Source: Candidatus Binatia bacterium (GTDB lineage Bacteria; Desulfobacterota; Binatia; UBA9968; JAJDTQ01). From it: a stretch of 64,000 bases of DNA. The position numbers and the translations under genes are program-made. The notes beneath the pieces were generated by a model. The model was not told the DNA's origin. It saw nothing but the letters and a program-made list of their open reading frames with translations, and ran no database searches. The stretch's first letter is position 1. Each line of letters opens with the position of its first letter. Shown piece after piece: positions 11,129-64,000 of the stretch. Location: positions 1,109,666 to 1,173,665 of the forward strand of contig OY729432.1 in NCBI GenBank assembly GCA_963422385.1, in the 5' to 3' direction.

Positions 11129-11157
11129 CGGAGCAGCCGCCCCGGCCCCTCCGGATT

Positions 11158-11262: not shown

Positions 11263-11520
11263 ATGGCCAACGGCTCCGCTTTCAGACGCACCATCCAGTG
11301 GCCCGACGACAAGCTTGTCTGCTGCACGTTCAGCGTGGCCCTGGAGGCCTTCCGAAAGACCGGCCGCTTCAAGATGGACCCACGCATCGACGTGAACCTC
11401 AACTCCCTCTCCCACGCGAATTACCGCGGCAACGCCGGGACCTGGCAAATTCCGGAGATCCTGGAGCGGCAAAAGGTCCGGGCCATGGTCTTGGTGAATT
11501 CGCTGGCGGCGGAGAAATGA
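11263..11520 (+). pseudogene. Possible N-terminal fragment of a polysaccharide deacetylase (PuuE-like), truncated after 85 aa
   Basis: WPDDKLVCCTFSVALEAF resembles the WPxGxRxAxSFxxNxEE start of PuuE-like deacetylases; the ORF ends prematurely. Confidence 0.25.
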
Positions 11521-11849
11521 CCAGACGCGGTCCGCGCGCTGCATTAGGGAGAATGGCGCGACAACGCGCCGTTCCTACCCAACATCTTTCTCAGGCAGTT
11601 CAACAGGATCCTTCGAGTCTGCGTTCTATGTCCCGATCTTTCTTATCCGGGAAGCTGTCCCGAAGCCGCCCTCACCTTGGACAACCAAACCCGTATACCT
11701 CAGTATCGGTCGGCGCCGGACATGTGAAACAGCAACCAGCATCACCTGAACAACTGTTTGCTCGACCATCGAATCCTTTGCCCCAATACCTATTGGGATA
11801 ATCTCTTTGATTCCCGTGCCGTGCTCCTACGCACACACTGGTGCCACGA

Positions 11850-12678: not shown

Positions 12679-12776
12679 TGCGCTCGCCATCACCGACCGC
12701 CTGGGGTCTTGCGTACTCTGTCGGGTTGAGGGCGGATGGAGTGGTTGGCTCCATGCCCTCGGACTACGGTCCGCCC

Positions 12777-14027: not shown

Positions 14028-14165
14028 TCCCTCCCTTCCGGGAGAGCGGTACGGTGAGATTTGCGTCTACCCTGCCGACGGGTTAGTGTGTCGTTCAGCA
14101 CTTGGCGTCCCGTCCGGTTGATTCGCATGCCTTGACCGGACAGCACACTTGATATCCCGCGTCGC

Positions 14166-15569: not shown

Positions 15570-15669
15570 CCGGGGCCGCGGGAGCTAGGGCGTCCTGCCC
15601 TCGCTCCCCAGGACGTGTTTCGCTGCCATTCGTTTGCTCGGACAGGCTCCCAGTCGGGCAGGAGACGCC

Positions 15670-47694: not shown

Positions 47695-49260
47695 ATGAAA
47701 CGCCGGCTCCCCATCGGCATGCAGACGTTCCGCGAGGTCCGTGAGCGGGACTGCTACTATGTGGACAAGACCGCCTACATCGAGAGGCTCGCGGCCTCGG
47801 GGAAGCACTACTTTCTCTCCCGGCCCCGGCGATTCGGCAAGAGCCTGTTCCTGGATACGCTGAAGGAACTCTTCGAGGCCAACGAGTCGCCGTTCAAGGG
47901 GCTTTACATCCACGACCGCTGGGACTGGTCCACGCGCTTCCCTGTTCTGCGCCTCAGCTTCGGCGCCGGCAGCTACAAGGAACCGGGGTACGTCGAAGCG
48001 AGCCTCATGGAACAGCTTGCCGGAATCGAGCGGCGGGCCGGTGTGGTTCTGGAATACGCCACCGCCGCGGGACGGCTCGGCGCTCTGCTGGAAGCGTTGC
48101 ATCTTCAGACGGGGCAGCCGGTGGTGGTGTTGGTGGACGAATACGACAAGCCCATCCTGGACGCCCTGGAGGCGCCGAAAGCGGCCGAAGCGAACCGCGA
48201 CTTCCTGCGCGGCCTCTACTCGGCCATCAAGGACCACGACGCGCACGTGCGGTTCACCTTCGTCACCGGGGTCAGCAAGTTCTCGAAGGTGAGCCTGTTC
48301 TCCGGTCTCAACAACCTCGCCGACCTCACGATGGACCCGCGCTATTCAGCCATATGCGGCTACACCGACGCCGACCTCGACACCGTGTTCGCACCCGAGC
48401 TTCCCGGACTCCACCGCGACGAGATCCGCGACTGGTACAACGGATACAGTTGGCGCGGCAACCAGAAAGTCTACAACCCGTTCGACATCCTGTTGTTGTT
48501 CGACAGCCGCGAGTACAAAGCCCACTGGTTCGAAACCGGGTCTCCATCGTTTCTGATCAAGACTCTGTTCGAACGGCGGCTGGGCGCGCCGGCCCTCGAA
48601 GACATGATCGGCACCGACGACCTGTTGTCGAAGTTCGATGTGGACGACATGACGACCGAGGCGCTGCTCTTCCAGACCGGCTATCTGACCATCCTGGAGG
48701 AGAGGAACCTGGGCGGCAAAACCCTCTACCGCCTGGGCTATCCGAACAGGGAGGTCAAGCAGAGCCTGAACGAGCACCTGTTGCGCGCCATGGGACCGGA
48801 CGCCTCACGGCAGGGACGGCACGACATCCGTCTCCATGAACTGCTTTCGGCCAACGACTTCGCCGGACTGGAAACGCTGTTCCGCTCGTTCTTCGCCGGC
48901 ATCCCGTACGAGTGGCATACGAACAACGACATCGCCAACTACGAAGGCTATTACGCCAGCGTGTTCGGCTATTACGCCAGCGTGTTCTATTCCTGGTTTG
49001 CCGCTCTCGGACTCGACGTTACGGTGGAGGACAGCAGCAGCCACGGCCGGCTCGACATGGCCGTGCGCTTCAACGGCAACGTTTACCTCTTCGAGTTCAA
49101 GGTGGTGGAGCTGGCGCCCAAGGGCGGGGCAATGGCGCAACTGAAAGAGAGAGCATATGCCGACAAGTACCGGCACTTGAACCAGCCCATCCACCTGGTT
49201 GCCGTCCAGTTCAGCAAGGAGAGGCGCAACCTGGCGTCGGTAGAGGTGGCGCGGGGTTGA
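47695..49260 (+). CDS. AAA-ATPase with a C-terminal PD-(D/E)XK nuclease-like domain (AAA_35/PDDEXK_9 architecture)
   Basis: N-terminus MKRRLPIGMQTFREVRERDCYYVDKTAYIERL...YFLSRPRRFGKSLFL is the hallmark of this family. It contains an in-frame 21-bp tandem duplication at 48946-48987. Confidence 0.75.
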   Translation: MKRRLPIGMQTFREVRERDCYYVDKTAYIERLAASGKHYFLSRPRRFGKSLFLDTLKELFEANESPFKGLYIHDRWDWSTRFPVLRLSFGAGSYKEPGYVEASLMEQLAGIERRAGVVLEYATAAGRLGALLEALHLQTGQPVVVLVDEYDKPILDALEAPKAAEANRDFLRGLYSAIKDHDAHVRFTFVTGVSKFSKVSLFSGLNNLADLTMDPRYSAICGYTDADLDTVFAPELPGLHRDEIRDWYNGYSWRGNQKVYNPFDILLLFDSREYKAHWFETGSPSFLIKTLFERRLGAPALEDMIGTDDLLSKFDVDDMTTEALLFQTGYLTILEERNLGGKTLYRLGYPNREVKQSLNEHLLRAMGPDASRQGRHDIRLHELLSANDFAGLETLFRSFFAGIPYEWHTNNDIANYEGYYASVFGYYASVFYSWFAALGLDVTVEDSSSHGRLDMAVRFNGNVYLFEFKVVELAPKGGAMAQLKERAYADKYRHLNQPIHLVAVQFSKERRNLASVEVARG

Positions 49261-49609: not shown

Positions 49610-50809
49610 ATGACCATTGACCTACAGACATTACAAACTGCTGTTGCCGGCACGGCCGCAGCGTTCCGGTGCGTGACCACCTATCAGCCGGCAGGAGGTC
49701 CCGGCGACAAGGTATTTCCCCCTACCTACAAAGGCGGGAAATACGCCACCGAGGAGCGAGTCGATCCCGAAACCGGCGAACGCCGACCCTGTGTTCTCCT
49801 GGATTCCGTGCAGTCGCAGGCCAACCGCATGGAACTGGCGTTGCTGGAAGCGCATCGCGCCAGCCAGGTGAGCCTTCCCTTGCTGGTCGCGCGCTTCAAT
49901 CAGGAGGAACTGCTCAAGAAGTTCACCGTGACCAGCCTTGAGGCGCCTCACCGCGTAGCGGATGCCCTTTTCCGAGACAGCCTCCTCGATGGCATGATCT
50001 TTCGCCGGTCAGAAAAGGGGCGAACACTTGACACCGCCGACGTGCGGAACGCCACCGGTCTGTTTGGCCTGTGTCCGACCGCCCTGGTATTCGGGCTGTG
50101 GGACTCGACCGGACCTCGTGGCGGTTCGGGTTGCAAGTTCCAGCGGGCGCTGGTGTCTGAAATAGTTGGGTATGATGCCGTGACGGGGAAGAAAACGTCC
50201 GGCCGCATTGACCCTGCGGAGATCATGCGTGATGCAGCTACGCTCTACGAGCGCAAGTCTGAAGGCGACAACGTGCCGCGCTGGACCTTGAAGGAAGGGG
50301 ACGGCAAGAGGAAGCTCAAGACGGGAAGGCCATCGGCAGCGAATCACGGAAACGTTGTACCCACCATCGCGGATGGCGGATTCACCCTGTCGGGAGCCCG
50401 ACAGACGACTACCTTGTCGCTCGCAGTCTTGCGACGCCTTCGTTTTCCGCTCGATGGAGCCGCCACTTCGAACGTCGCTACCGACCTTGCCGCACGCACC
50501 GCTCTGGCTGCCCTGGGTCTCGCCGCCGGGAGCCTGGCGCGCGTCGATACCGACCTTCGCTCTCGCTGCCAACTGTTCGCGGAGCAAACGCCCGCATGGG
50601 AGTTGCTCGACCACCCCGGTGAACCGCCACGGCAATTCGAACACGGTCCCGAAGACGCGCTCGAACTGTTGGATGAGGCGATCAAGGTGGCCAAAGATGC
50701 CGGCCTGCCGTGGGAGGGTGAGGTCGAATTGACTCCGTCGCCCGACTTGGTCGAACTGGTTCGGCGTAGCCAGGAAATGGCAAGCGCTTCGGAGGCGGAG
50801 CAAGGCTGA
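49610..50809 (+). CDS. cas7: Type I-G (formerly I-U) Cas7, Csb1/GSU0053 family
   Basis: YQPAGGPGDKVFPPTYKGGKYATEER and VLLDSVQSQANRMELAL are recalled signatures of the Csb1 family; the G-rich loop TGPRGGSGCKFQRAL; the gene lies directly upstream of csb2. Confidence 0.65.
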   Translation: MTIDLQTLQTAVAGTAAAFRCVTTYQPAGGPGDKVFPPTYKGGKYATEERVDPETGERRPCVLLDSVQSQANRMELALLEAHRASQVSLPLLVARFNQEELLKKFTVTSLEAPHRVADALFRDSLLDGMIFRRSEKGRTLDTADVRNATGLFGLCPTALVFGLWDSTGPRGGSGCKFQRALVSEIVGYDAVTGKKTSGRIDPAEIMRDAATLYERKSEGDNVPRWTLKEGDGKRKLKTGRPSAANHGNVVPTIADGGFTLSGARQTTTLSLAVLRRLRFPLDGAATSNVATDLAARTALAALGLAAGSLARVDTDLRSRCQLFAEQTPAWELLDHPGEPPRQFEHGPEDALELLDEAIKVAKDAGLPWEGEVELTPSPDLVELVRRSQEMASASEAEQG

Positions 50810-53169
50810 TGTTCGCTCTTGGCATCCGCTACCTGAACGGGTGGTCGATGGCCGCTGCGGACGGAGCGAGAAAGGAGAAGGCCGAATGGCCGCCGCATCC
50901 GGATCGGGTGTTCATGGCCTTGGCCGCGGCCTGGTTCGAGACCGATGCAGACGGCTCCGAAGGGGAAGCCTTGCGCTGGCTCGAAACCTTGCCGCCCCCT
51001 GAAATTGCCGCGTCGGATGCCGAGAGTCGCACCCCTGTCGTCAGCTACGTACCCGTCAACGACCCGAGCCTCGGTCGCAAGATGCCCGCAGGTCAAGACT
51101 TGGACAAGCTCAAGGATGCCGGACTGGGCCAACTGCCGGAGCATCGGTCGCCCCAGCCCCGCGGGTTTCCCGTGGCCATCCCTCGGGATCCGACGGTACA
51201 CCTGATTTGGCCGGAGGCACAGGTGGGCGTGCATCGCGAGGCCCTGGACCGGCTGGCCGCGAAGGTCACCCATGTGGGGCATTCCGCATCCTTCGTGCAA
51301 GCGTGGCTCGAAACCAGTCCATCGCCGCCCGCGTGGGTCCCGGGGACCGGGGTCGCGCGTCAGCGCCTGCGCGTGACGAGCCCTGGTCGCTTGAGGACTC
51401 TGGAAGGGCGCATGAACCGCGAAGCGTGGATCGCCTACCATGACCTTCGCCACGAAATCGAGCAGGCCGAGGCGGACCTCAAGGCGATGAAGCGCCCGCC
51501 AAGGGCGCCTTGGGAGGCATTCCCGGACGTGATTTTGCTGGCCGGCGAAACCCGAACCAGGCGGCATCCCGAGTACGCTGACGCAAAAGCCACCGACGAT
51601 GCTGTGGCCGCGGCCAACCTCGTCAACAGCCTGGTTGACGAAGCGGGGATTGCTGCGGTGCGGACACTGATCGCCACAGTCAGTGAAAGTGGTGAGCCGA
51701 TCCTGGTCAGCGCACATGCATTCGAGCGGCAGGGGCTCAATGCCATTCCCGCTGCCTTGACGAGATTGCTGAGCGAACGACTCCGCATCCCGCGCGAGAC
51801 TACCGTTGTGCAGACGAACGTTGTCTCCCACACGGGTGCAGACGGTTATGGTCGCCTTGCGCGACAAGCCTGTTTCGACGGCCGCATCGAAGCAGGTCGA
51901 GAGTATCTTATGGTGGACGATTTCGTTGGCCAAGGCGGGACCTTGGCCAATCTGCGCGGCTGGATGGAAAAACAAGGCGGTCAGGTCGTCGGAGCCGTTG
52001 CCCTGACCGGCAAATCGTACTCCGCCAAGTTGAACCCTTCAAAGGAGCAACTCCATGAACTCGGACAAAAGCACGGATCAGACTTTGAAAAGTGGTGGCA
52101 GGCGCACTTCGGCCACGCCTTCGATTGCCTTACTCAATCGGAAGCTCGGTACCTCGCCCGCTCCCCGGATGTTGACACCATCCGAAATCGCCTTGCTGCG
52201 GCAAAGCAAGGTGGAAGTGGATCGAGTAACAGGCGAAGTCCTGGCGAGCAAAGACAATACATAAAGGAAATGAAGACACGTCTAAGAGACACCTTCCCCG
52301 ATGGTGAACCCGTAAGCTTGCGCCCTGTACCGGGCCGCTGGCAGGGGTACACAGAGGCATCGAAAGATGGTGACCCTGAAGCACCGGGCCCGGTTTTCGC
52401 CCCGCGGCTCATTGTCCTGGACCTCAAGGGCAGGCGGGTGTCTTTGCCGGCCACGCTCAAGCTCACCGCGGCCCTGCGTGGGCTGTTGATGCGAGAGTGT
52501 GCCGACCAGCCCCCACCCGAGTGGTTCAGCGGCCATCGCACGGACGGCAAGCCAAGCGCCAACCCGCATCTCGCCCTGATACCGCTTCCCTTTGTCGGCG
52601 CCGAGCATGCAGACGGTCGCGTCATGGGTTTGGGTCTCGTACTGCCTGCGGATTTGGACTCATTGGCGGCCGGCCATTGTCTCGAACCGTTCTTGCACGA
52701 GTCGGCTACCGGCTTGCCACGCGAACATCCGTTGTTCGACGGCCAGTGGTTCGAGTGCGCTATCGAGTTGGAAACCCGCGAACGACCGCCGAGGAACCTC
52801 GACCCGAGAACCTGGACGCGGAGATCCTGCGTTTGGGCAAGCGTGACTCCGATCGTCCTGAACCGACACTTCGACGGCAAGGACAAGTGGGCGAAGGCCG
52901 CCGACAGCGTGAAAGACGCCTGCCGGCATATCGGCCTGCCGCGCCCCCGAGAAGTGCTGCTCCACCCGATCTCGCTGGTTGAAGGCGCACCGCACGCCAG
53001 GGACTACCCGCAACTGACCCGCAAGAACGCCGGTGGCGCGCGCAGCCACAGTCACGCGGCGATCATTTTCGACGAACCCGTGCGCGGGCCGGTAATTGTC
53101 GGGGCCGGGCGTTTCCGGGGGTATGGGTTGTGCCGGCCGATGGACGGGGGTGGCCAAGACCGTGGTTGA
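50809..53169 (+). CDS. Type I-G Cas5-Cas6 fusion (Csb2/GSU0054 family) with an inserted phosphoribosyltransferase-like domain
   Basis: N-terminal EWPPHPDRVFMALAAAW...VSYVPVNDP (Cas5 region of Csb2). C-terminal GAGRFRGYGLCRP glycine-rich loop (Cas6-like). At 786 aa it is far longer than the ~500 aa usual for Csb2, and the middle segment carries YLMVDDFVGQGGTL, a canonical type-I PRTase PRPP-binding motif. Confidence 0.65.
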   Translation: MFALGIRYLNGWSMAAADGARKEKAEWPPHPDRVFMALAAAWFETDADGSEGEALRWLETLPPPEIAASDAESRTPVVSYVPVNDPSLGRKMPAGQDLDKLKDAGLGQLPEHRSPQPRGFPVAIPRDPTVHLIWPEAQVGVHREALDRLAAKVTHVGHSASFVQAWLETSPSPPAWVPGTGVARQRLRVTSPGRLRTLEGRMNREAWIAYHDLRHEIEQAEADLKAMKRPPRAPWEAFPDVILLAGETRTRRHPEYADAKATDDAVAAANLVNSLVDEAGIAAVRTLIATVSESGEPILVSAHAFERQGLNAIPAALTRLLSERLRIPRETTVVQTNVVSHTGADGYGRLARQACFDGRIEAGREYLMVDDFVGQGGTLANLRGWMEKQGGQVVGAVALTGKSYSAKLNPSKEQLHELGQKHGSDFEKWWQAHFGHAFDCLTQSEARYLARSPDVDTIRNRLAAAKQGGSGSSNRRSPGEQRQYIKEMKTRLRDTFPDGEPVSLRPVPGRWQGYTEASKDGDPEAPGPVFAPRLIVLDLKGRRVSLPATLKLTAALRGLLMRECADQPPPEWFSGHRTDGKPSANPHLALIPLPFVGAEHADGRVMGLGLVLPADLDSLAAGHCLEPFLHESATGLPREHPLFDGQWFECAIELETRERPPRNLDPRTWTRRSCVWASVTPIVLNRHFDGKDKWAKAADSVKDACRHIGLPRPREVLLHPISLVEGAPHARDYPQLTRKNAGGARSHSHAAIIFDEPVRGPVIVGAGRFRGYGLCRPMDGGGQDRG

Positions 53170-54934
53170 ATCGAACGGCACGGCACGGGAACACGTGCTA
53201 CTGACAGTGCTCGGCACGAACCCGAAGAAGGCATGCTATCGCTTCAAGGACAGGCAGGCGGAGGCCATCCTCGCCCCGATCGCCCTGTATGACTTGTCGC
53301 CGGAAGCAGACCGGCCTGACCGGGTATTGGCACTCTGCACACCAGAGGCAAAGCAGAACAGTTTGCCGCTCCTTGAAGATGGGCTATGCGGTCGGTGCGT
53401 TGTGAAACCGGTTGACATTCCTGCCGGCAACTCTCAGGCGGACGTCCATACTTTCTTGGCTACGGTTGCCGCCGCCATACCGGAGAGAGCCGATCTCACC
53501 GTAGACGTCACCCACGGGTTCCGGCATTTCTCGTTCCTCACCTACATCGCCGTTCTCTACGTATCGGCGCTTCGCGGCATACGGGTACGCGGCGCCTACT
53601 ACGGTATGTTGAATCACAATGAGGCGAGTCCGTTTCTCGATCTGCGTCCGCTTCTGGAACTGCCCCGCTGGCTTCACGCGCTGCAGGTGTTGAACGATAC
53701 GGGGAGCGCCGTGTCCATTGCCAGTATCCTCGATGAGGGTTCCCAAGGACGGGGACCGCGGCTAATCGCAAGGCGTCTATCGCAGTGTCTATCGCAGTGT
53801 CTATCGCAGTTCTCGGAAGCGTACTTGTCCGGTCTCCCGCTCGAACTCGGCCGGCACGCGGCTGAGTTCACGCAGCAGTCGATCAAGCCGTTGAAGAGAC
53901 TGCTCCAGAACGATCACGCGTTACCCCTCGGGGGCGAGTTGGCCGATCAAATAGCAGAGTTCTTCAAGCCGCTGGCCCTGGGATCACAGGCTTCAGGGAG
54001 CGGGTGGAAGCAAAAGGTCGCGCTCTCGAAGGAAGAACTGGAACGTCAGGCCGCAGTTATCGACAACCTGCTGCGCCATGGAAGCGTCACAGCCGCATTG
54101 GGTCTCATGAACGAGTGGACCGTGTCGTGGGTAGTCCGGGTCCGCGACGGGCGCAACAGCGAATGGCTCGACTATCACAATGTCCGTCGCGGCGCCGCGA
54201 GCCTTCTCGGCGCCATGAGGGCCATCGGTAACGACCCTGAACTGCATTGTCTCTTGACGGATGAGCAGCGTTCGCTCGGAGTGTTCTGGGGAGAACTGTG
54301 TGACCTTCGCAACGGATACCACCACCACGGCATGCGCCCGCAGGTTCTGGTCGGCGACGCGCAAACCGGGAAAAAACTTCAGGGTGTGCGGGAATACTGG
54401 ACGACAACGCTCCGCTCATGCCCCGAGAATTTCGGGTTCTCGCTCGGCGATACGTCTGGAGGCCGGGTTCTGGTCAGTCCCATCGGAAAGCGCCCTGGCG
54501 TGCTGTACAGTGCGTTGCGCGCCTGCAGGGACGAAAACGGTAACAGCAGGTTGTCGCGATGCCTCGTCATCTGCTCGCCCGAAACCCGAGGAAAGATCGA
54601 CGAGGCGGTCGAGAACGCGGGGTACAAAGGGCATGTTGAGCCGCTTGTAATCAAAGACGCTTTCGGCGGCGGCTCCGGGGAAATCAGGAGCGTGGTGGCG
54701 AGGGGGCGAAAACATCTCATCGGTGCCGAGGCCGTCTTCGTGAACGTCACCGGCGGCACGACGCTCATGGGCCTTGCTGCCGAAGACCTTGCCAACGCGG
54801 GACGTGAACTTGCCTGCCCGGTGCGCCGGTTCGGCCTGATCGACCGCCGGCCGCCGAGAGAGCAGGAGGCCGACCCCTACCGGGCCGGCGAACCATTCTG
54901 GCTGGACCCGGGAGAAGACAAGAATGCCGACTGA
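53162..54934 (+). CDS. csx1: Csx1/Csm6-family CARF-HEPN protein (DxTHG family)
   Basis: N-terminal CARF strand LLTVLGTN and DVTHGFRHFS (DxTHG signature); C-terminal HEPN-like LCDLRNGYHHHG (R-x4-H). A GTG start at 53162 or 53195 is more likely than the listed ATG 53096, which overlaps csb2. Confidence 0.75.
   Translation: MVESNGTAREHVLLTVLGTNPKKACYRFKDRQAEAILAPIALYDLSPEADRPDRVLALCTPEAKQNSLPLLEDGLCGRCVVKPVDIPAGNSQADVHTFLATVAAAIPERADLTVDVTHGFRHFSFLTYIAVLYVSALRGIRVRGAYYGMLNHNEASPFLDLRPLLELPRWLHALQVLNDTGSAVSIASILDEGSQGRGPRLIARRLSQCLSQCLSQFSEAYLSGLPLELGRHAAEFTQQSIKPLKRLLQNDHALPLGGELADQIAEFFKPLALGSQASGSGWKQKVALSKEELERQAAVIDNLLRHGSVTAALGLMNEWTVSWVVRVRDGRNSEWLDYHNVRRGAASLLGAMRAIGNDPELHCLLTDEQRSLGVFWGELCDLRNGYHHHGMRPQVLVGDAQTGKKLQGVREYWTTTLRSCPENFGFSLGDTSGGRVLVSPIGKRPGVLYSALRACRDENGNSRLSRCLVICSPETRGKIDEAVENAGYKGHVEPLVIKDAFGGGSGEIRSVVARGRKHLIGAEAVFVNVTGGTTLMGLAAEDLANAGRELACPVRRFGLIDRRPPREQEADPYRAGEPFWLDPGEDKNAD
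53766..53801 (+). repeat. In-frame 12-bp x3 tandem repeat inside csx1, encoding (LSQC)x3
   Basis: gtctatcgcagt repeated three times. Confidence 0.5.
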
Positions 54935-56132
54935 AATCGAGGCAACCTATCGTGTCGTCACGCCGATGTTCTGCGCAGGCGCCACTCCCTCTCACGCCGA
55001 AGTTCGCGCGCCCTCCTTCAAAGGCGTGCTGCGCTTCTGGTGGCGGGCGCTGGCATGGTCGCGGCTGAAGGGTGACCTGGAAGCCATCAAGAAAGAGGAA
55101 GACAGGCTCTTTGGAAGCGCGAGCGGCGGTGGTTCGAAGGTGTCGATGCGTGTGGAGATGGACGCGCGTCAGAAAACAGTCCCGCAGAACACAGTACTTA
55201 CTGTTTCCGAAAAAAACCGCACCCCTGTCGGGGAGGGCGCCCGCTATCTCGGCTACGGCGTCATGGAAGCGTTCACGAGCAAGCCGAAGAATACGCGGGC
55301 AGGGCAACTCACGCGTTCGTGTCTCCATGCCCCTTTCGACTTCACTGCTCAAATGCGAGGTCGTAACCTGACTGAGGCGGAATCATCATCACTTAAGGAC
55401 GCTCTGGTCGCTCTGGGAACGTTCGGCAGTGTGGGAGCCAAAAACCGCAGGGGGTACGGCTCGTTGGTCCTTCAGTCTTTGCTTGTTGGTGGAGGCAACC
55501 AGTACCGTCAGCCACAGGACATGACCGGGCTGCATGACGCAATCAAGAAGCTCCAGCCCGATAGTGGGGGGCAAACGGCTCAAACCGGTTTGCCCGAGTT
55601 CACCGCATTGTCCGTGGAAGCGCGTCACCTACTGCTGTCAAGCGACAAGAAGGAACCCATGAATCTCCTGGATCTCGTTGGCCGCGAGTTGATGAGGTAT
55701 CGTAGCTGGGGCCACAACGGAAAGGTACTCGGTCAACCATCAGAGCGTAATTTCAAGGATGATCACGACCTGATGAAGAAGTCGGCTGGAGAGCGTAAGA
55801 CACATCCTCGCCGCATCGCCTTCGGCCTTCCTCACAACTACGGCAAGAGACCGGACCAACAGGTTGGCCCGTATGACAAGAAAACGGACCGTCGCGCCAG
55901 TCCGCTGTTTGTCCACATTCACGAATGTGGTGGTACACCGGTCGCCCTACTGTCGTTCCTCCCGGCCCGATTTCTGCGCAAAGATGGATCGGACGTTTCC
56001 GTCGGGCAAACCCGAATCGCTCACCGTCCAGAGGACGAACTCTACCGCCCGATTCACGACTTTCTTGACCGCCTGCTCGATGAAAACAAGCGGAAGGAAC
56101 AATTTACGGATGTTCAGGAGGTGCAACCGTGA
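54924..56132 (+). CDS. cmr1: Type III-B Cmr1 (Cas7-group RAMP)
   Basis: TPMFCAGA ... RAPSFKGVLRFWWRA, the Cmr1 N-terminal RAMP signature; the start overlaps the csx1 stop. Confidence 0.85.
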   Translation: MPTEIEATYRVVTPMFCAGATPSHAEVRAPSFKGVLRFWWRALAWSRLKGDLEAIKKEEDRLFGSASGGGSKVSMRVEMDARQKTVPQNTVLTVSEKNRTPVGEGARYLGYGVMEAFTSKPKNTRAGQLTRSCLHAPFDFTAQMRGRNLTEAESSSLKDALVALGTFGSVGAKNRRGYGSLVLQSLLVGGGNQYRQPQDMTGLHDAIKKLQPDSGGQTAQTGLPEFTALSVEARHLLLSSDKKEPMNLLDLVGRELMRYRSWGHNGKVLGQPSERNFKDDHDLMKKSAGERKTHPRRIAFGLPHNYGKRPDQQVGPYDKKTDRRASPLFVHIHECGGTPVALLSFLPARFLRKDGSDVSVGQTRIAHRPEDELYRPIHDFLDRLLDENKRKEQFTDVQEVQP

Positions 56133-58081
56133 CGATGCGTCTCGACATCTCCATCGGACCCGTGCAGGGCTTCGTCGCCCAGTCACGCCGCACACGCGAT
56201 CTCTGGGGGAGCTCCTATCTGCTGTCTTTTCTTTGTGCCCACGCGATGCGTGGTGCGGAACAGGCCGGCGCCAGGTTCATCCAACCGGTTGCCGGGGTTG
56301 TCGAGAAGGACCGGCTTTACCGTTGGGTTCGCGGCCAACGAGAGGGAGAACCGCCGCGAATCGGTTCGTTGCCGAACCATTTTGCTGTAGAAGTCGAGGG
56401 AGATGCCCGGAATGTTGCTGACGCGAGCGAACAGGCGTTCAACGATGCCTGGAAGCAGGCGTACAAGGCCGTGTGGAAGCAGTTTGTTGAACGTGCCTGT
56501 CCATCGGGCAACGCAACGGATGAAATCTGGAACCGTCAGGTTGGTGGATTCTGGGAGGTCACGTGGACGGCCGGGGACGTGCGTACAGAGGGCGGTTTGC
56601 TCGGCCGCCGCAAGCATTGGCGCAGCCACCGTCCACCCGAGGAGTCCGGCGACAAGTGCACGGTCATGCACGATTTGCAGGAGTTGTCGGGCCATGTTCG
56701 AGGGGAACACCGAACAAGCCGGGACTTGCAGAATCGGTTTTGGAAGACCGTTGGTGAACGCCTCGGACCGCTGGATTTGCGAGACGACGAACGTTTGTGC
56801 GCCGTCGCGTTGGTGAAGCGACTGTTCCCGAAGGTCGCCCGCGAAGCCTTGGGCTGGCGGGTCGACGCCTCGCACTGGCCGTCAACCGTTTATGTCGGTG
56901 CCGTTCCCTGGATTTGCCAAGTCGTGCAGACCAAACCGGGACTGGCACAGAAATACGCTGAAGCTGTCAGACAGAGCACAACCGACGTTCTGGCGGAACA
57001 TAAGCCTCTGTTCGCCAGCCTGGAGAAGAATGCCGGCGACTTCGCCAAGCTCGACGCGAACTACATGCACCGTGAATTCGTCGCCAATGAACGACTCTGT
57101 CCGTTGGCCGTAGACGGTGCTCGCGATAAGTTGAAAGAACTGCTGAAAGCCATTTACGACACGTCCGACGAAGCCGGTCACATACTTGGTCCACCACCGA
57201 CGTTCTACGCCCTTCTCCTTGCTGACGGCGACCGCCTCGGCAAGCTGGTGGGTGAACTCGGGGGCGAGACGGTAAGCAACGCGTTGGCAGCTTTCACAAA
57301 CAAAGTTCCACAGATCGTGAGAGAATCCGGCGGTGTCACGGTCTACGCGGGTGGAGACGACGTGCTCGCCATGCTGCCCGTGGTGGGCGCGCTGGACTGT
57401 GCGGACAACCTCGCCGAGGCGTATCGAGCCACGTTCAAGGACACCGAGGCGCCTGCCCGTGCGACCCTCTCCGCGGCGGTGGTCTTCGCCCACGTTCGTT
57501 TGCCGCTCAACCACGTCGTTGGCCAAGCGCATCGGCTGCTGGACGACGTTGCCAAGGATGGTAATGGCCGCAACTCCCTGGTCGCAGCGGTCCTCAAACC
57601 CGGCGGAATGCAGTGCCAATGGGTGACGACGTGGGCTCGCAGTGGCCCGGAAGGCGAGGTGCGCGCGGTGGGATCGCTCGGTGATCTGATCGGACAACTC
57701 AAAAGCAGCGCAACGGAACCGGGCCTCTCCTCGTCACTCATTTACCGGATGCGGGACACGTTCACCCGGCTCTGCGGCTGGGACCGATGGCGCCCCGGCA
57801 ACTGGGGCACGCTCCCCCAAGGTCTGGATGTTCGCGCATTCCTGCGGGCGGAGATACACCACAGCCTGGATGTGAGGATGGATAGCGGTGCCGACGCTCG
57901 CGCCAACGGAATGACTGCCAGCGTCTGGAACCTCCTGGGTCCGGCGCGGAATCCACAAGGCGACAAGCCCGACGCGGTGCCGGGGAGCAGCGAAAACACA
58001 CCTGTTACCGAAGCCGGCGTTGACTCGCTCTTGCTCGCCCGCTTTCTCGCGGACCCTGAAGAACAGGAGTCAAACCGATGA
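56129..58081 (+). CDS. cmr2: Type III-B Cmr2/Cas10 without an N-terminal HD domain; both Palm motifs are intact
   Basis: GPVQGFVAQSRRTRDLWGSSYLLSFL, LLADGDRLGKL, and YAGGDDVLAMLPV (the GGDD cyclase motif). At 650 aa it begins at the position where HD-containing Cas10 proteins have finished their HD domain. Confidence 0.9.
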   Translation: MTMRLDISIGPVQGFVAQSRRTRDLWGSSYLLSFLCAHAMRGAEQAGARFIQPVAGVVEKDRLYRWVRGQREGEPPRIGSLPNHFAVEVEGDARNVADASEQAFNDAWKQAYKAVWKQFVERACPSGNATDEIWNRQVGGFWEVTWTAGDVRTEGGLLGRRKHWRSHRPPEESGDKCTVMHDLQELSGHVRGEHRTSRDLQNRFWKTVGERLGPLDLRDDERLCAVALVKRLFPKVAREALGWRVDASHWPSTVYVGAVPWICQVVQTKPGLAQKYAEAVRQSTTDVLAEHKPLFASLEKNAGDFAKLDANYMHREFVANERLCPLAVDGARDKLKELLKAIYDTSDEAGHILGPPPTFYALLLADGDRLGKLVGELGGETVSNALAAFTNKVPQIVRESGGVTVYAGGDDVLAMLPVVGALDCADNLAEAYRATFKDTEAPARATLSAAVVFAHVRLPLNHVVGQAHRLLDDVAKDGNGRNSLVAAVLKPGGMQCQWVTTWARSGPEGEVRAVGSLGDLIGQLKSSATEPGLSSSLIYRMRDTFTRLCGWDRWRPGNWGTLPQGLDVRAFLRAEIHHSLDVRMDSGADARANGMTASVWNLLGPARNPQGDKPDAVPGSSENTPVTEAGVDSLLLARFLADPEEQESNR

Positions 58082-59241
58082 TTGGCGTCCAGCTCCAGCC
58101 GGTTGACACTTGGTTCTTTCGCGATGGGACGCCGTTCACCAAGGAGAGCGCGCCACAGGAGAACGTCAGCAGCCTGTTCCCACCGCATCCGCCGACGGTC
58201 GTGGGCGCACTCCGGGCCGCATTAGCATCAGCTCGCGGCAACGGTTGGACTGGCCAAGGGGAATGGCCGCCGGGAATTTGCGACGTGCTCGGCGACGGCC
58301 CCGAGAACCTGGGGCTTCTTTCCTTTGTCGGCCCGGTCCTTCTCCGAGATAACGCGCCGCTTTTTCGCGCGCCGCGTCATCTGCTGGGTTCGACCGACGA
58401 TGCGTGCTGGCGCCCGCGCATATTCCTCCGGCCCGGCCCTCCGGTGATGTGCGATCTGGACGACGCGACGCAGATCCCGGAGGTGTCCGGCACTACAGGA
58501 GAAATCGAAAAGCTCAAGACCGGCGATGCCTGTTGGCTGACACGGGCCGGCATGAGCGCGGTGCTTCACGGTCGTCGTCCGTGTCCCGACGACATGATAC
58601 CGGACTGCTGTCTGTGGTCCGACGAATCGCGCGTCGGGCTGGAACGCGACAACACGAAGCGCACGGCCAGGGAAGGTATGCTCTACAGTAACCGACACAT
58701 TCGTCCGCTGCGGGGAGTTTCACTCGGCGTGCAGATTGCCGGCCTGCCTCAAGGCTGGACGCCGCCCTTTGGAGAGTTGATACCACTGGGCGGCGAGAGC
58801 CGACTTGCCGAGTGTCAGGCGTGGAACGCGGATTTGGCTCTTGAGACGGACATGGAGAAAATCAAGGCAACCGGGAAGGCCACAGTCATGGCTCTTTCAC
58901 CGATGGAACTGGCGGAGGAAATCTGTCGCGGCGCCAAACCGATAGACGATCTGGGCGGCGCCCGTGTCGTATCGGCCTGCCTGGACCGGCCGCTACGAAT
59001 CGGAGGGTGGAATTCCCTGGCACGGCGTCCGTTGCCGCTGCGATCCGTGTTGCCATCGGGCAGTGTCCTCTTTTGCGAGGTCGACGACCCGGAACGCTTC
59101 GCGGAGAGCATGGCAGCCGGCGATGAGTTGCCACGCATGACGTCAGGCAATGCGCTGGCACGCATCGGGTCGCGCCGTGAATGGGGTTTTGGCCTTGTCG
59201 CTGTCGGCAGTTGGCCGGATGAACAGGAGGAAAATTCATGA
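58078..59241 (+). CDS. cmr3: Type III-B Cmr3 (Cas5 group)
   Basis: LQPVDTWFFRDGTPF N-terminal motif; ATGA overlap with the cmr2 stop. Confidence 0.85.
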   Translation: MIGVQLQPVDTWFFRDGTPFTKESAPQENVSSLFPPHPPTVVGALRAALASARGNGWTGQGEWPPGICDVLGDGPENLGLLSFVGPVLLRDNAPLFRAPRHLLGSTDDACWRPRIFLRPGPPVMCDLDDATQIPEVSGTTGEIEKLKTGDACWLTRAGMSAVLHGRRPCPDDMIPDCCLWSDESRVGLERDNTKRTAREGMLYSNRHIRPLRGVSLGVQIAGLPQGWTPPFGELIPLGGESRLAECQAWNADLALETDMEKIKATGKATVMALSPMELAEEICRGAKPIDDLGGARVVSACLDRPLRIGGWNSLARRPLPLRSVLPSGSVLFCEVDDPERFAESMAAGDELPRMTSGNALARIGSRREWGFGLVAVGSWPDEQEENS

Positions 59242-60071
59242 GAACAGCGATGCTCGGTCTCTTGGCCGAGACGCCCATCCATCCCGGCTCCGGGCGCGGC
59301 ATGGGTGTGGTGGACCTGCCCGTGGCGCGAGAAGCTGCCACCGACTACCCCGTGCTCGTCGGATCGAGCTTGAAGGGCGCATTGCGGGACAAGACGGGCA
59401 AGAATGCGGACGAAAATGCCGCGAACGAGAGGTTCGGGAAACCGGAGCAGGCGGGCGACCTGCTCGTCTCGGACGCGCGTCTGTTGTTGCTGCCCGTGCG
59501 TAGTCTGACCGGCGCGTACCGCTGGGCCACATGCCCGCATCTCGTCGAACGGTACGTTCGCGATTGCGCCCGGGCGGGCAGGCGAACGGAATCTCTGGCA
59601 CCTCCCGATGTGAAGGAGGGGGAAGTTCTGACGTCCGGTTCAGGCGATCTGTTCCTCGAAGAAAGACAATTCCCTATCTGTGGCGAACCTGCATCCGAGT
59701 TGGCGCGCGCCATCGCGCCGTTGCTGCTCCACCAGGAAACACGGGAACGGCTGCATGGACAGATTGCCGTGCTGTGTGACGACGACTTCGCCTGGTTTGT
59801 CCGCTATGGCCTTTCCATTCAGGCGCGCAACCATCTGGAAGACGAGACCAAAAAGAGCAAGAACCTGTGGTACGAGGAAACTCTGCCTCCCGATACGCTG
59901 CTTTACTCTCTCGTCGCGGGCCGAAACGACGCGGCTCTCGACACCCTGGATTCCCTCTTCCCCGACAGCGATCCCTACCTGCAAGCCGGCGGCAACGAGA
60001 CCGTGGGCCAGGGCTGGTTCGCTGTCAGGGTCCTTAAGCCCGTGGCACCGGATGCGGAGGAATCGCAATGA
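59238..60071 (+). CDS. cmr4: Type III-B Cmr4 (Cas7 backbone subunit)
   Basis: ETPIHPGSGRGMGVVDLPVAREAATDYPVLVGSSLKGALR is the canonical Cmr4 start. Confidence 0.9.
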   Translation: MRTAMLGLLAETPIHPGSGRGMGVVDLPVAREAATDYPVLVGSSLKGALRDKTGKNADENAANERFGKPEQAGDLLVSDARLLLLPVRSLTGAYRWATCPHLVERYVRDCARAGRRTESLAPPDVKEGEVLTSGSGDLFLEERQFPICGEPASELARAIAPLLLHQETRERLHGQIAVLCDDDFAWFVRYGLSIQARNHLEDETKKSKNLWYEETLPPDTLLYSLVAGRNDAALDTLDSLFPDSDPYLQAGGNETVGQGWFAVRVLKPVAPDAEESQ

Positions 60072-60478
60072 GGACCATCGAGCAGGAACGTGCGGCAAAC
60101 GCCCTTGGACGTGTAAACAAATTGAGTAGTGAGACCAACGACTTCAAAAAGCGATACAGAAGCTATGTCGACCGCCTCGGACCGACCATCGTGCTGAACG
60201 GTCTGGGCCAGGCACTGGCTACCGAGCGCGCTACGGCCGGCTCAGAACCGAAGGAACCGGACGAAAAGGCGCACCAGATGCTTTATGACAGCTTGCAGAG
60301 CTGGCTTTGCCGCGACGATGGCGTTTATCCGCCCGGCAACGATCTCTTGCAGGTTCTCATGGAGAAGGACGAAGTGCTTTACCTCCGCGCCCAGGCCGAA
60401 GCGCTGGCATGGCTTGAGTGGCACAAGAAATGCTGCCGAGCCTCGTTCCCGAAAAGCGATCCAGGAGACAAGCCGTGA
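60068..60478 (+). CDS. cmr5: Type III-B Cmr5 (Cas11 small subunit)
   Basis: A 136-aa helical protein positioned between cmr4 and cmr6 with coupled ATGA/GTGA overlaps. Confidence 0.7.
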   Translation: MRTIEQERAANALGRVNKLSSETNDFKKRYRSYVDRLGPTIVLNGLGQALATERATAGSEPKEPDEKAHQMLYDSLQSWLCRDDGVYPPGNDLLQVLMEKDEVLYLRAQAEALAWLEWHKKCCRASFPKSDPGDKP

Positions 60479-61617
60479 CTCTGCCGCTTTACAAGGCCGT
60501 GGCTGACCGACCGCCAAGCCGGGAGGTTACGGGACATGCGGGCCTGTGGTTCGACAAGTTCTGCAACCAGTGGCGCCATGAGAAGTCCACCTGGACCATG
60601 AAGAGCCGCGACGAGCACAACCCCAAGCTCCAATGGATCAAGACCCTGACGACGGGAAAAGTCGGTGCGGCGCCACACCTCCAGGAGACCGCGCTGCGCC
60701 TTGCGGCATTGGTCGAGAGCCGTAAAGGACACGTTGAAGTGTTCACCACGACGTCACGCTTCGTCACGGGCCTGGGCCGCAGCCATCCCATCGAGAACGG
60801 CTTTGCCTGGCATCCGACACTGGGAACACCGTATGTGCCGGGAAGCTCGGTGAAGGGTCTGGTTCGTTCCTGGGCCAAGCTGGAGGCTGACCCGCGTCCG
60901 GACAAGCAGCTTCGGGAACGCCTGCTTGGAACGCCTGATAAAGCGGGTAGCCTGTGTTTCCTCGATGCCATCCCTATTGCCCCCGTGCAGCTCGAAGCAG
61001 ACGTGATGACGCCTCACTACGCAGGCTGGAGTGTGGATGACCCGCCGGGAGATTGGCGGTCGCCGACGCCCATCCCCTTCCTGACCACGGCCGCGGATAC
61101 CCCCTTCCTGTTCGGTGTGACTCCGGTCCGTGACATTTCAGACGCTGACCTGCGTGCCGTCCAGGAATGGCTGCGCGCAGCCCTCGCGTGGGGCGGAGCT
61201 GGCTCCAAGACGGCGATTGGATACGGCCGCTTCGAGAGCAACGAGCGGGAAACGACCAGCCTGACGGACAGGATACGGAAGCGCAAAGAAGCGCGCGAGA
61301 CGTTGATGCAGGCCGAGAGGACGGCAAGGGAGCGTGCAGAGCGGTTGGCGGCTCTCAGCCCTACGGAGCGCGAGATCGAGGAATTGCTCAATACGCGTCG
61401 GGACAGAAACGTGCCTGAAATCACCGCCATCATTCAGGCAGTCAAGAGCGGTCGCTGGACTGGCGACGCCAAAATCGAAGCCGCACGATGTCTGAAGGAC
61501 CGGATGACCAGAGCGAAGAAGTGGAAAGAAACCAGCCGGAAGAAACAGCCTGCCAAGGACCGGGATTACCAGGACACGTTGACCGTCATACGCTGGCTGC
61601 GGGGCGAAGCGTCATAG
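60475..61617 (+). CDS. cmr6: Type III-B Cmr6 (Cas7 group)
   Basis: GLGRSHPIENGFAWHPTLGTPYVPGSSVKGLVRSW, the RAMP G-rich loop; a GTG start at 60475 overlapping the cmr5 stop (alternatively the GTG at 60418). Confidence 0.85.
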   Translation: MTLPLYKAVADRPPSREVTGHAGLWFDKFCNQWRHEKSTWTMKSRDEHNPKLQWIKTLTTGKVGAAPHLQETALRLAALVESRKGHVEVFTTTSRFVTGLGRSHPIENGFAWHPTLGTPYVPGSSVKGLVRSWAKLEADPRPDKQLRERLLGTPDKAGSLCFLDAIPIAPVQLEADVMTPHYAGWSVDDPPGDWRSPTPIPFLTTAADTPFLFGVTPVRDISDADLRAVQEWLRAALAWGGAGSKTAIGYGRFESNERETTSLTDRIRKRKEARETLMQAERTARERAERLAALSPTEREIEELLNTRRDRNVPEITAIIQAVKSGRWTGDAKIEAARCLKDRMTRAKKWKETSRKKQPAKDRDYQDTLTVIRWLRGEAS

Positions 61618-61640: not shown

Positions 61641-64000
61641 ATGTCCCTGACTAACAAAGTGAGTCCCGTGACTGACCTGACCGCGACAGACTTCGCCGAC
61701 TTCTTTGCGGGGTCTTGGGGCTATCAGCCCTTTGCATGGCAGCAGACATTGGCGGAGAGGGTGCTGGAACATCCAGAGTCTCCCTGGCCCGAGGCGATCG
61801 CTCTACCGACGGCTTCCGGAAAGACCGCTTGCCTGGATATAGCGGTGTTCGCGTTGGCGGTCCAAGCGTCGCGGATGGAGCGAAAGCAGACCATCACCGC
61901 GCCTCGCCGCATCTTCTTCGTAGTGGACCGGCGCGTGATCGTGGACGAGGCATACGAGCGCGCCAAGCGGTTGGCAAAGAAACTGGATGAAGCCGATGCG
62001 GGCATCGTCAAGAGGGTCGCGGACAATCTTCGACAGATCGCCCACGGCGAACCGACGAACTCAGATCGCGAACGACCGCTGGCTGCCCATTTGTTGCGCG
62101 GCGGCATGTACCGCTCCGAAGCCTGGGCGCGGAATCCGCTACAACCGACGGTGGTGGCATCCACCGTTGATCAGATCGGCTCTCGTCTGCTGTTCCGCGC
62201 CTATGGACGCGGCTTCGGCACTTGGCCGATCCATGCCGGACTCATCGCCAACGACAGCCTCATCCTCCTCGACGAGGCGCATTGCGCTCAGCCGTTTCTT
62301 CAGACCTTGCGGGCGGTTCGACGTTTCCGGACCTGGGGGCACAATCCGCTCAAGCGATGCTTCTTTCCCGTGGTCATGTCCGCCACGCCACCGCTAGGGA
62401 TGACGGACGTATTCGAGGACCAGTCCGACGAACGGCTCGATCCGCGCCATCCGCTTGGCCGACGCCAATCGGCGCACAAACCCGCGGTCCTCAAGGCAGT
62501 CCACAACGCCAAGGGACCAAAAGCCACACATGTATTGGCTCGGGCTCTAGCCAATGCAGGAGTGGAACTGGTCAACGAACAACGTCGAGCGATCGTGATA
62601 TTCGCCAACCGCGTGGCGACGGCGCGGCAGACTCACCGGCTGTTGACGGCCGATCACGGAGACCGCGTGGTCCTGCTCACCGGCCGTATGCGCCCCGTGG
62701 ACAAGGACGCCATCGTTCAACAGCGTTTGAAGCTCCTTTACTCGAATCAGTCCGGGCAACGCGCTCTGGAAGAGCCGCTCATGGTCGTGGCTACTCAAAC
62801 CCTGGAAGTCGGGGCCGACCTCGACTTCGATGGTCTCGTCACCGAGTGCGCAAGTCTCGACGCCCTGCGTCAACGCTTCGGCCGCTTGAACCGCATGGGG
62901 CGCCCCATAGAGGCGCGAGCGGTGATCCTTGTCCGTGGGGATCAGGCCGGAGCAACGGCGGACGAGCCGGCGGCGACGAAAGTGAAGACGGGAGAGAACG
63001 AGGACCCTGTTTACGGTCGAGCCTTGACCCGGACGTGGACGTGGCTCAATACGCACAACGCCGAGACGGGCGAGGTCGACTTCGGAATCTCATCCCTCGG
63101 CCCGCAATTGCCGGAGGGCGATTCCCTGGCAGCACTAAACGCCCCGACCCGTGACGCTGCGGTGATGCTTCCCGCCCACCTCGATTGCTGGGCGCAGACG
63201 GCCCCAGCCCCATGCCCTTCCCCCGACGTCGGCCTGTTCCTGCATGGTCCGCGCGAAAGCGTGGCTGACGTGCAGGTCTGTTGGCGCGCGGACCTGGATC
63301 TGATCGAGGAGAAGGAAACAGTGCTGGAGCTGCTGTCCTTGTGCCCACCGAGCAGCAACGAGACGCTGCCGGTGCCGATCGGCGTATTCCGGCGTTGGCT
63401 GGCCGGGGGAGCCATCGAAGACGACAGCGCCGATGTGGAGGGAATCGGCACAGAAGACGACAGCAGCGGGAGGAGTGCGCCGGTAGTCCGGTGGCGCGGG
63501 GCAGGGACCGACGGGGACGACATCACGGATGACCCCAAGCTGGTTCGGCCCGGCGACGTGATCGTGATTCCGACCCGCCATCCGGGACAAGCGCGCCGAC
63601 TCGGCGACGTGCCGCAGGACGCTGTCCTCGACGTAGGTGACGAGGCCTATCGCCGCGCCCGCGCCAAGCCCATCCTTAGGCTGAGTCCGGCGCTCGTGAA
63701 CGATTGGCCGGACTCCATCAATGCAAAGGCCGCTGCATCCGGACTGTTGAAGAATCTGGAGCAGAGGTACGAGGATGATCCGCACGAGCTCGGCGATGCC
63801 TTGCGGGAGTTGCTGACGGAGGTGGCCGACTCGGAACCGATCTCGGAACGCTGGGCCTGGTTGCCGCAAGCGGCGAAAGAGCTGGCGGACGAGTACCGAG
63901 GCGCCGTGTTGGACCGCGCCTATCGGGTTGTCGGTAAAGAAAGCATCGTCCTCGTCGGGCATCGCCGCCTGCAACACCTCGCCCACGAAGCCGACAGCTT
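61641..64000 (+). CDS. cas3: Cas3-like superfamily-2 helicase with the helicase domain first (type I-G style); the ORF continues past the window end
   Basis: My own translation from ATG 61641 is open through 64000 and is absent from the ORF track because it has no stop. FADFFAGSWGYQPFAWQQTLAERVL; motif I LPTASGKTAC; motif II LLDEAHC; ATQTLEVGADLDFD; motif VI LRQRFGRLNRMGR. Confidence 0.7.
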   Translation, partial: MSLTNKVSPVTDLTATDFADFFAGSWGYQPFAWQQTLAERVLEHPESPWPEAIALPTASGKTACLDIAVFALAVQASRMERKQTITAPRRIFFVVDRRVIVDEAYERAKRLAKKLDEADAGIVKRVADNLRQIAHGEPTNSDRERPLAAHLLRGGMYRSEAWARNPLQPTVVASTVDQIGSRLLFRAYGRGFGTWPIHAGLIANDSLILLDEAHCAQPFLQTLRAVRRFRTWGHNPLKRCFFPVVMSATPPLGMTDVFEDQSDERLDPRHPLGRRQSAHKPAVLKAVHNAKGPKATHVLARALANAGVELVNEQRRAIVIFANRVATARQTHRLLTADHGDRVVLLTGRMRPVDKDAIVQQRLKLLYSNQSGQRALEEPLMVVATQTLEVGADLDFDGLVTECASLDALRQRFGRLNRMGRPIEARAVILVRGDQAGATADEPAATKVKTGENEDPVYGRALTRTWTWLNTHNAETGEVDFGISSLGPQLPEGDSLAALNAPTRDAAVMLPAHLDCWAQTAPAPCPSPDVGLFLHGPRESVADVQVCWRADLDLIEEKETVLELLSLCPPSSNETLPVPIGVFRRWLAGGAIEDDSADVEGIGTEDDSSGRSAPVVRWRGAGTDGDDITDDPKLVRPGDVIVIPTRHPGQARRLGDVPQDAVLDVGDEAYRRARAKPILRLSPALVNDWPDSINAKAAASGLLKNLEQRYEDDPHELGDALRELLTEVADSEPISERWAWLPQAAKELADEYRGAVLDRAYRVVGKESIVLVGHRRLQHLAHEADS

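Follow-up and report, generated by a model that had tools for sequence, protein, structure and literature searches.

Type I-G (formerly I-U) is, to our knowledge, the least understood of the type I CRISPR-Cas systems, and its Csb2 subunit is unresolved in the only cryo-electron microscopy structure. In canonical type I-G Csb2 proteins, such as Thioalkalivibrio sulfidiphilus Csb2 (PMC9638904), GSU0054, and the R. marinus pRMAR01 protein, a Cas5-like N-terminal domain and a Cas6-like C-terminal domain are combined in a single chain, generally of 480-530 amino acids (aa), and the operon partners are csb1/cas7g, cas3g (with a C-terminal HD domain), cas8g, cas4/1, and cas2. In T. sulfidiphilus Csb2, the two domains are independent folding units with a linker between them, and the Cas6 domain cleaves the CRISPR RNA precursor (pre-crRNA) and remains bound at the 3' hairpin (PMC9638904). 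Here, a type I-G locus of Candidatus Binatia bacterium is described in which Csb2 shares these domains and operon partners but carries approximately 270 extra residues, including a complete phosphoribosyltransferase (PRTase) module, in the linker. The stretch analyzed (the window) comprises 64,000 nucleotides (nt) of contig OY729432.1 (assembly GCA_963422385.1, positions 1,109,666 to 1,173,665, forward strand); in its relatives, the 36-nt hairpin repeat ends in ATTGAAGC, as in canonical type I-G systems. Both Csb2 and the clade to which the PRTase belongs were already known; what appears to be new is their combination, in which a PRTase module from mobile elements is built into the Cascade of a type I-G system. 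Full-text literature searches, with limited coverage of subscription journals, turned up no account of a Csb2 or Cascade that contains a PRTase.

As for the module itself, ComFC binds phosphoribosyl pyrophosphate (PRPP) and nucleoside monophosphates (NMPs) through its PRPP loop, with T165 being needed for nucleotide binding, and works with the superfamily 2 (SF2) helicase ComFA on single-stranded DNA (ssDNA); whether it acts as an enzyme or a regulator is debated (PMC9005727). The “PRTase of invasive elements” is a clade that carries a DD motif and an arginine shared with ComFC, and its role has been called “enigmatic” (Iyer et al. 2017, PMC5512222). Domains of the phosphoribosyltransferase (PRT) fold also occur in anti-phage systems, including ShosT, PsyrT, the effector of retron-Eco11 (type III-A3), and OpnC of Ophion. 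Finally, type I-E and I-F variants in which HNH is fused to Cas8e or Cas5f likewise possess an extra enzyme-type domain within a Cascade subunit; in those variants, however, HNH replaces Cas3, whereas in the present system a Cas3 with an intact HD domain is kept, and the added fold is of a nucleotide-metabolism type rather than a nuclease.

An earlier annotation of the window (the original prediction) had taken the 786-aa product of csb2 for a Cas5-Cas6 fusion, and both halves have been identified: the protein matches TIGR02165 at 296.6 bits (curated cut-off, 45), PF09609 at 67.5 bits (cut-off, 21), and the PADLOC profile Cas56g at 3.8e-119. These matches are split into two stretches, aa 1-279 and aa 482-780, the latter corresponding to positions 159-429 of the Cas56g profile. 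All of the sequence motifs quoted in that annotation are present in the translation of the open reading frame (ORF) at 50809-53169, with EWPPHPDRVFMALAAAW at aa 26-42, VPVNDP at aa 81-86, and the glycine-rich loop GAGRFRGYGLCRP at aa 765-777. H749, which is kept in Csb2 alignments and lies about 37 residues before the C-terminus, in a position like that of H503 in T. sulfidiphilus Csb2, is a candidate for the Cas6 catalytic histidine on the basis of alignment and position. On these profile matches and alignments, the protein is to be regarded as a bona fide Csb2 of type I-G. An assembly or fusion artifact was considered and rejected, the same single ORF being conserved in more than 70 genomes. 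Csb2-family entries with this architecture already exist in public databases, where they are labeled merely as Csb2. Searches of the PDB by sequence, using the protein and a 39-sequence profile as queries, yielded no solved Csb2 structure.

The insertion is delimited by comparison with two plasmid-encoded Csb2 proteins that lack it, those of Methylomagnum ishizawai (512 aa; 57% identical) and Rhodothermus marinus (481 aa; 38% identical). Both align to aa 1-211 and approximately 486-786 of the window protein, with nothing aligned in between, so that the middle segment is confirmed as an insertion and the expectation of a canonical Csb2 of about 500 aa without such a domain is borne out. Since the two independently folding domains of T. 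sulfidiphilus Csb2 are separated by a linker, the insertion can be placed in this interdomain region. Its extent had been underestimated: an insert of about 215 aa (aa 255-470) was originally proposed, and while the insertion is real, its length is approximately 270 aa (nt 51442-52263), of which aa 228-470 constitute the part common to homologues found elsewhere.

Within the insert, LMVDDFVGQGGT at aa 367-378 displays the hydrophobic run, two acidic residues, and subsequent xxxxGxT of a PRPP loop. The window protein scores 18.4 bits against PF00156 (aa 356-403), below the gathering threshold of 26.3, and the motif by itself is therefore weak evidence, although some homologues of the module do exceed the threshold (e.g., P0124, at 29.8 bits). 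The PDB sequence searches returned weak matches to adenine and orotate phosphoribosyltransferases (APRT and OPRT) on the PRPP loop alone. An AlphaFold2 (AF2) model built with 39 homologues has a predicted local distance difference test (pLDDT) value of approximately 85-95 for aa ~205-500, and in a Foldseek search of the PDB all of the top 50 matches were PRTases, PurR, or ComF, including OPRT, APRT, xanthine phosphoribosyltransferase (XPRT), PurR, and H. pylori ComF; a search of viral folds in BFVD returned generic giant-virus PRTases and nothing else. The insert is thus predicted to have a PRT core fold, and these fold searches, together with the 2081 sequence homologues described below, place its identity as a PRTase beyond chance. 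The type I PRTase domain that was originally proposed accordingly stands by its fold, while failing to reach the score required by PF00156.

The best structural match is ComFC (H. pylori ComF, PDB 7p0h), which shares the type I PRT fold and the DDxxxxGxT loop, with T378 of the window protein corresponding by motif register to ComFC T165. Sequence identity, however, amounts to only ~14-18%, and the insert differs in having N- and C-terminal helical extensions of its own and in lacking both the N-terminal four-cysteine Zn finger and a competence context; it contains two cysteines (C355 and C440) and no CxxC pairs. When sequence and model are read together, E306...N311-A-I-P is a candidate pyrophosphate loop, and H341-F356, which includes R349, is a candidate flexible loop. 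No PADLOC profile, including those of the ShosT, PsyrT, and retron type III families, matched aa 221-531 at E <= 0.01, which argues that the insert is not a close relative of the PRTases of those systems.

The origin of the module is revealed by its homologues. An exhaustive HMMER scan with aa 221-531 as the query recovered 2081 homologues, 381 of them with E <1e-30, and among the best 150 representatives of 50%-identity clusters, 140 are not Csb2 proteins. They are instead solo proteins of about 240 aa, C-terminal fusions to MuF, or polyvalent proteins of 1000-4700 aa that carry LPD1/5/7/37/38/39, ART-PolyVal, or PriCT2-Toprim domains. E-values between the insert and these solo, MuF-fused, and polyvalent proteins reach down to 1e-80; copies of the invasive-element clade are 40-56% identical to the insert across the whole 240-aa module, and the module matches phrog_22413 at 2e-58. 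Homologues are present on 168 plasmid records, while phages in GenBank provided three matches only (Moraxella phages Mcat5 and Mcat8, and one Burkholderia phage). Individual residues are strongly conserved: K260, E306, N311, R349, F356, G358, D370, D371, G376, T378, T442, and E445 are each conserved in at least 99% of 106 non-Csb2 homologues (D370, D371, and T378 in 100%, and R349 in 99%), and R459 is conserved in 94%. All thirteen of these residues are present in the window protein, and in a set of 39 Csb2 homologues only D370 shows any variation (conserved in at least 90%); in the loop itself, D371, G374, Q375, G376, G377, and T378 are invariant across the same set. The arginine conserved after strand 2 in the invasive-element clade corresponds to R349.

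Judged by these homologies, the insert is a member of the invasive-element PRTase clade of phages and plasmids (PMC5512222; phrog_22413), with which it shares the DD motif, R349, and the other signature residues, a relationship that was missed in the original prediction. Whereas the phage and plasmid copies are solo proteins or belong to MuF-fused or giant polyvalent proteins, the present one is embedded within a Cas protein encoded on a chromosome. In a neighbor-joining tree, the Csb2 inserts form one clade adjoining solo and polyvalent PRTases, which is consistent with a single capture. A “solo” protein of 249 aa (P0122) is placed within the Csb2 clade and may be a gene fragment.

Several of the homologues found outside Csb2 deserve brief mention. 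The conjugative, IncP-like Azotobacter plasmid pAcX50c encodes a 443-aa “phosphoribosyltransferase” (L086, 6010-7338) between kfrB and traM, beside a relaxase/oriT region. On Acinetobacter plasmid pD36-4, a solo homologue of 237 aa (L085, 5989-6702) is found near an ImmA/IrrE peptidase and an SOS-response-associated peptidase. The non-Csb2 protein P0124 (817 aa) possesses two tandem PRTase modules, at aa 311-519 and aa 566-790.

The PRTase-containing form of Csb2 is widespread. Full-length homologues (~785 aa) fall into more than 120 clusters at 90% identity and are 66-88% identical to the window Csb2. A scan of one genome per species identified 364 stretches encoding a relative, from which 79 loci were fetched; the closest derive from Binatia (87-90% identity), and the others from Latescibacterota, Nitrospirota, Acidobacteriota, Gemmatimonadota, Alpha-, Beta-, and Gammaproteobacteria, Entotheonella, and others, so that Csb2 proteins with the same insert are indeed to be found in many bacterial phyla. 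Several contig or isolate names among these loci suggest metagenome-assembled genomes associated with sponges or corals. The exact loop sequence DD[FL][IV]GQGGT is kept in 72 of the 76 Csb2 ORFs recovered, and mean identity is 0.70 in the PRTase region (0.73 in its core) as compared with 0.69 in the Cas domains.

We regard it as very likely that the protein has been correctly identified, that its module originated from mobile elements, and that it is linked to type I-G. As to how it arose and what it does, the probable explanation, held with less assurance, is a single insertion of a complete invasive-element PRTase (ComFC-related type I fold, ~240 aa) into the Csb2 linker, where it would serve a ligand-binding accessory role, followed by horizontal spread of PRTase-Csb2 through many phyla. 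The Cas6 domain would cut pre-crRNA and stay on the 3' hairpin, as does T. sulfidiphilus Csb2, so that each Cascade would carry a single PRTase module, tethered at its hairpin end. Its DD...GQGGT loop would bind PRPP or a nucleoside monophosphate, and the module might then act as a ligand-dependent accessory, assisting or gating the handling of DNA by the SF2 helicase-nuclease Cas3 without replacing it. The proposal of an accessory to the Cas3 helicase-nuclease is drawn from analogy with the PRTase-helicase pair ComFC-ComFA, and a ComFC-like, ligand-gated mechanism of this sort is offered tentatively, as a possibility on the doubtful side. The notion that the PRTase takes the place of the Cas3 nuclease was rejected, the HD motifs of Cas3 being invariant in relatives both with and without the PRTase.

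A number of observations weigh against this explanation. The many invariant polar residues would fit a true enzyme equally well, and they keep an enzymatic model alive. In ComFC, ssDNA binding was unaffected by mutation of the PRPP loop (PMC9005727). The Zn finger of ComFC is absent from the insert and, with a net charge of about +1, the latter displays no obvious nucleic-acid-binding surface; this near-neutral charge and the missing Zn finger argue against simple binding of ssDNA. The Cas5 and Cas6 parts of the AF2 model have pLDDT values below 60, leaving the interdomain geometry unreadable and giving no matches to Cas folds. Finally, the module can be lost. In L077 (~10001-11960), L078 (~10001-11752), and P0144, the PRTase core is deleted (window aa ~270/300-395/468) while the flanking helices of the insert remain; these are clear secondary deletions. 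L080 and L082 are without the insert entirely; these two loci and that of Methylomagnum are elsewhere 57-73% identical to the window Csb2. Loci lacking the core or the whole insert keep cas3 and cas8g. Loss of the core in some lineages, together with the intact HD domain of Cas3, indicates that the PRTase module is accessory and dispensable for basic Cascade function.

Among the alternatives, the one that survives best, though we think it unlikely, is an enzymatic effector: an active PRTase, either constitutive or switched on at target binding as a second, metabolic arm of type I-G immunity, that would shift the pools of nucleotides or PRPP, or else modify a base or a macromolecule, akin to ShosT, PsyrT, retron-Eco11, or Ophion OpnC. 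The fully conserved PRPP loop and the invariant polar residues K260, E306, N311, R349, T442, E445, and R459 would be consistent with an enzyme, PRTase domains are proven or proposed effectors in several defense systems, and the domains of MuF fusions and polyvalent proteins are, as a rule, enzymes that are delivered to the cell (PMC5512222). Nevertheless, solo homologues reside on plasmids without an obvious antitoxin nearby, the intact HD domain of Cas3 means that a replacement effector is not needed, and certain lineages have dispensed with the core.

A small-molecule sensor is considered improbable. Here, the PRT fold would serve solely as a receptor for PRPP, NMPs, or guanosine penta- or tetraphosphate, (p)ppGpp, in the manner of PurR, PyrR, or ppGpp-bound XPRT, and would adjust crRNA processing or interference in response to the nucleotide or stress state of the cell. 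The fold matches do include ppGpp-bound XPRT (6w1i), PurR-ppGpp (7rmw), and a PRT-like protein with bound ppGpp (5vog), the co-option of PRT domains for regulation has been discussed (PMC9005727), and an accessory module that can be lost would suit such a role; the same invariant residues, however, are found in phage and plasmid copies, in which sensing of the host's state is less obvious.

Even less probable is a functionless passenger, i.e., a mobile-element domain that landed in a tolerant linker and is carried along or decaying there. The flexible linker at the insertion site and the partial or complete losses in L077, L078, P0144, L080, and L082 might be taken to suggest as much, but among relatives down to ~50% identity the insert shows the same degree of conservation as the Cas domains, 72 of 76 ORFs keep the exact PRPP loop, and all of the clade-defining residues are retained.

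Least probable, and largely refuted by distribution, is the coupling to type III put forward in the original prediction, in which the insert would connect the crRNA-processing subunit with type III-B, cyclic oligoadenylate (cOA), and CARF signaling: the window csb2 does abut a CARF-HEPN gene and a Cmr2 with a GGDD motif, as in L010, L020, and L021, and Csb2 can act as the Cas6 for III-B (bioRxiv 10.1101/2023.06.23.546230), yet approximately 70 of the 79 PRTase-Csb2 loci are plain type I-G operons without type III genes, the cassette interrupts a type I-G operon whose cas3 resumes at 61668, and a different, III-A-like cassette occupies the same site in L004.

Taken as a whole, the presence of a conserved, 240-aa nucleotide-binding or enzymatic module in Csb2 suggests an unrecognized accessory activity of a DNA-targeting Cascade. 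It is possible, if somewhat short of an even prospect, that the polyvalent proteins of phages or plasmids have furnished this Cascade with a functional small-molecule enzyme or a receptor for nucleotides. If so, DNA-targeting CRISPR immunity would possess a second, nucleotide-based output or input, for example, a target-triggered perturbation of PRPP or purines, or the gating of Cas3 by (deoxy)nucleoside monophosphates or (p)ppGpp, and the enigmatic invasive-element PRTase would for the first time become accessible to functional study. Phages and plasmids deliver this domain on entry, by injection or by expression, and the Csb2 fusion offers a tractable system for discovering its role; the natural variants L077, L078, and L080 supply boundaries for deletion constructs.

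Table 1. Positions of csb2, its domains, and neighboring CRISPR-associated genes in the 64-kb window.
Feature	Coordinates	Strand	Basis or remark
csb1 / cas7g (399 aa), type I-G Cascade backbone subunit	49610..50809	+	PF09617 3.5e-53; TIGR02570 4.6e-21
csb2 (786 aa), tri-domain Cas5-like / PRTase / Cas6-like	50809..53169	+	TIGR02165 4.5e-88; PADLOC Cas56g 3.8e-119
Cas5-like N-terminal domain, aa 1-211	50809..51441	+	Alignment with insert-less Csb2 (Methylomagnum, Rhodothermus); first TIGR02165 stretch
Insertion relative to canonical Csb2, aa ~212-485, Cas5/Cas6 interdomain linker	51442..52263	+	Absent from insert-less Csb2
PRTase module, aa 228-470: N-terminal helices, type I PRTase core (aa ~296-402), C-terminal helical part	51490..52218	+	
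PRPP-loop signature YLMVDDFVGQGGTL (D370, D371, T378), aa 366-379	51904..51945	+	
Cas6-like C-terminal domain, aa 505-786, with glycine-rich loop GAGRFRGYGLCRP	52321..53166	+	Cas56g second stretch; alignment
CARF-HEPN-CARF (Csx1/Csm6-type) gene, first of cassette	53096..54934	+	PADLOC PDLC01840 7.5e-139; TIGR02549 DxTHG
cmr1	54924-56132	+	NCBIfam
cmr2/cas10, 650 aa (short), GGDD cyclase motif at aa 408-411	56129-58081	+	NCBIfam
cmr3	58078-59241	+	NCBIfam
cmr4	59238-60071	+	NCBIfam
cmr5	60068-60478	+	NCBIfam
cmr6	60418-61617	+	NCBIfam
cas3g 5' part (aa ~11-781 of ~1016), runs off window end	61668..64000	+	Single tblastn high-scoring segment pair

The surroundings of csb2 are those of a type I-G operon (Table 1). 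In all related loci, csb1 lies directly 5' of csb2, and in nearly all of them the order is csb1-csb2-cas3g-short cas8g(-cas4/1-cas2) or cas3g-cas8g-csb1-csb2; in the ancestral gene order, csb2 overlaps cas3. The cas3g fragment at the end of the window, which had been overlooked in the original prediction, is 71% identical (tblastn, frame 3) to the Cas3g of L001, a protein that matches the PADLOC Cas3g profile at 4.5e-238. The 313-aa protein encoded after cas3 in relatives is Cas8g (PADLOC 5e-95), and its gene, present in those relatives, would lie beyond the end of the window. No CRISPR array or Rfam family was found within the 64 kb. The ordinary type I-G operons of relatives are accompanied by a CRISPR array; that of L001 has 33 repeats, with a 36-nt hairpin repeat.

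The presence of a Cmr complex and a CARF effector next to csb2 was correctly recognized at the outset, and the CARF gene, cmr1-6, and the GGDD motif of Cmr2 have all been confirmed; the true start of the CARF gene is probably downstream of 53096. Because cas3g resumes at 61668, the III-B cassette is best understood as a secondary insertion nested inside the I-G operon. Type III adjacency is restricted to a minority of about 8 of the 79 loci, so that insert-bearing Csb2 proteins do not, in general, co-occur with type III modules. The arrangement of CARF-HEPN and cmr1-6 is found only in L010, L020, and L021 besides the window. In L004, the closest relative, a III-A-like cassette (short Cas10, Csm2, Csm3, Csm4, and Csm6; 12322-17313) sits at the same site; L005 has a Cas10-palm match at the corresponding position, making a III-A-like cassette probable, and in L007 and L027 a Cas10-palm gene lies at a greater distance downstream. 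This distribution, and the differing cassettes at one site, indicate that the PRTase insert belongs to a type I-G clade, and that it is older than, and does not depend on, any association with type III.

Neither the window cassette nor the type III cassettes of relatives contain a cas6 gene, and Csb2 has served experimentally as the Cas6 of a III-B system (bioRxiv 10.1101/2023.06.23.546230). These findings suggest that the csb2-cas3 junction is a recurrent insertion hotspot for cas6-less type III cassettes, and that the nested cassettes share Csb2 for crRNA processing. In the window and a small number of relatives, such a cassette would have been inserted between csb2 and cas3 at a later stage, and presumably borrows Csb2. 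Repeated nesting of this kind bears on the sharing of crRNA processing between type I and type III systems.

Some minor features of these loci were also recorded. The Methylomagnum plasmid pRS11DPr1 (L083, 7777-15025) carries a decaying type I-G locus between transposases, with csb1 split in two, the C-terminus of csb2 frameshifted, and cas3 fragmented; its Csb2 is the insert-less, 57% identical protein. The CARF gene of the window contains a perfect tandem repeat (12 nt x3, 53775-53810). Upstream of csb1, a 521-aa protein with AAA-ATPase_like (PF09820) and PDDEXK_9 (PF08011) domains is encoded at 47695-49260 (+), in a gene with a perfect tandem repeat of its own (21 nt x2, 48946-48987); tblastn matches of 55-74% identity were obtained in approximately 15 related loci of other phyla, mostly upstream of csb1, and this gene may travel with the I-G locus. 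Finally, about 9 kb upstream of the CRISPR genes, a 713-aa protein encoded at 38631-40772 (-) combines a caspase-like N-terminal region of the EACC1-associated type with a PvdO/FGE-sulfatase-like C-terminal domain.

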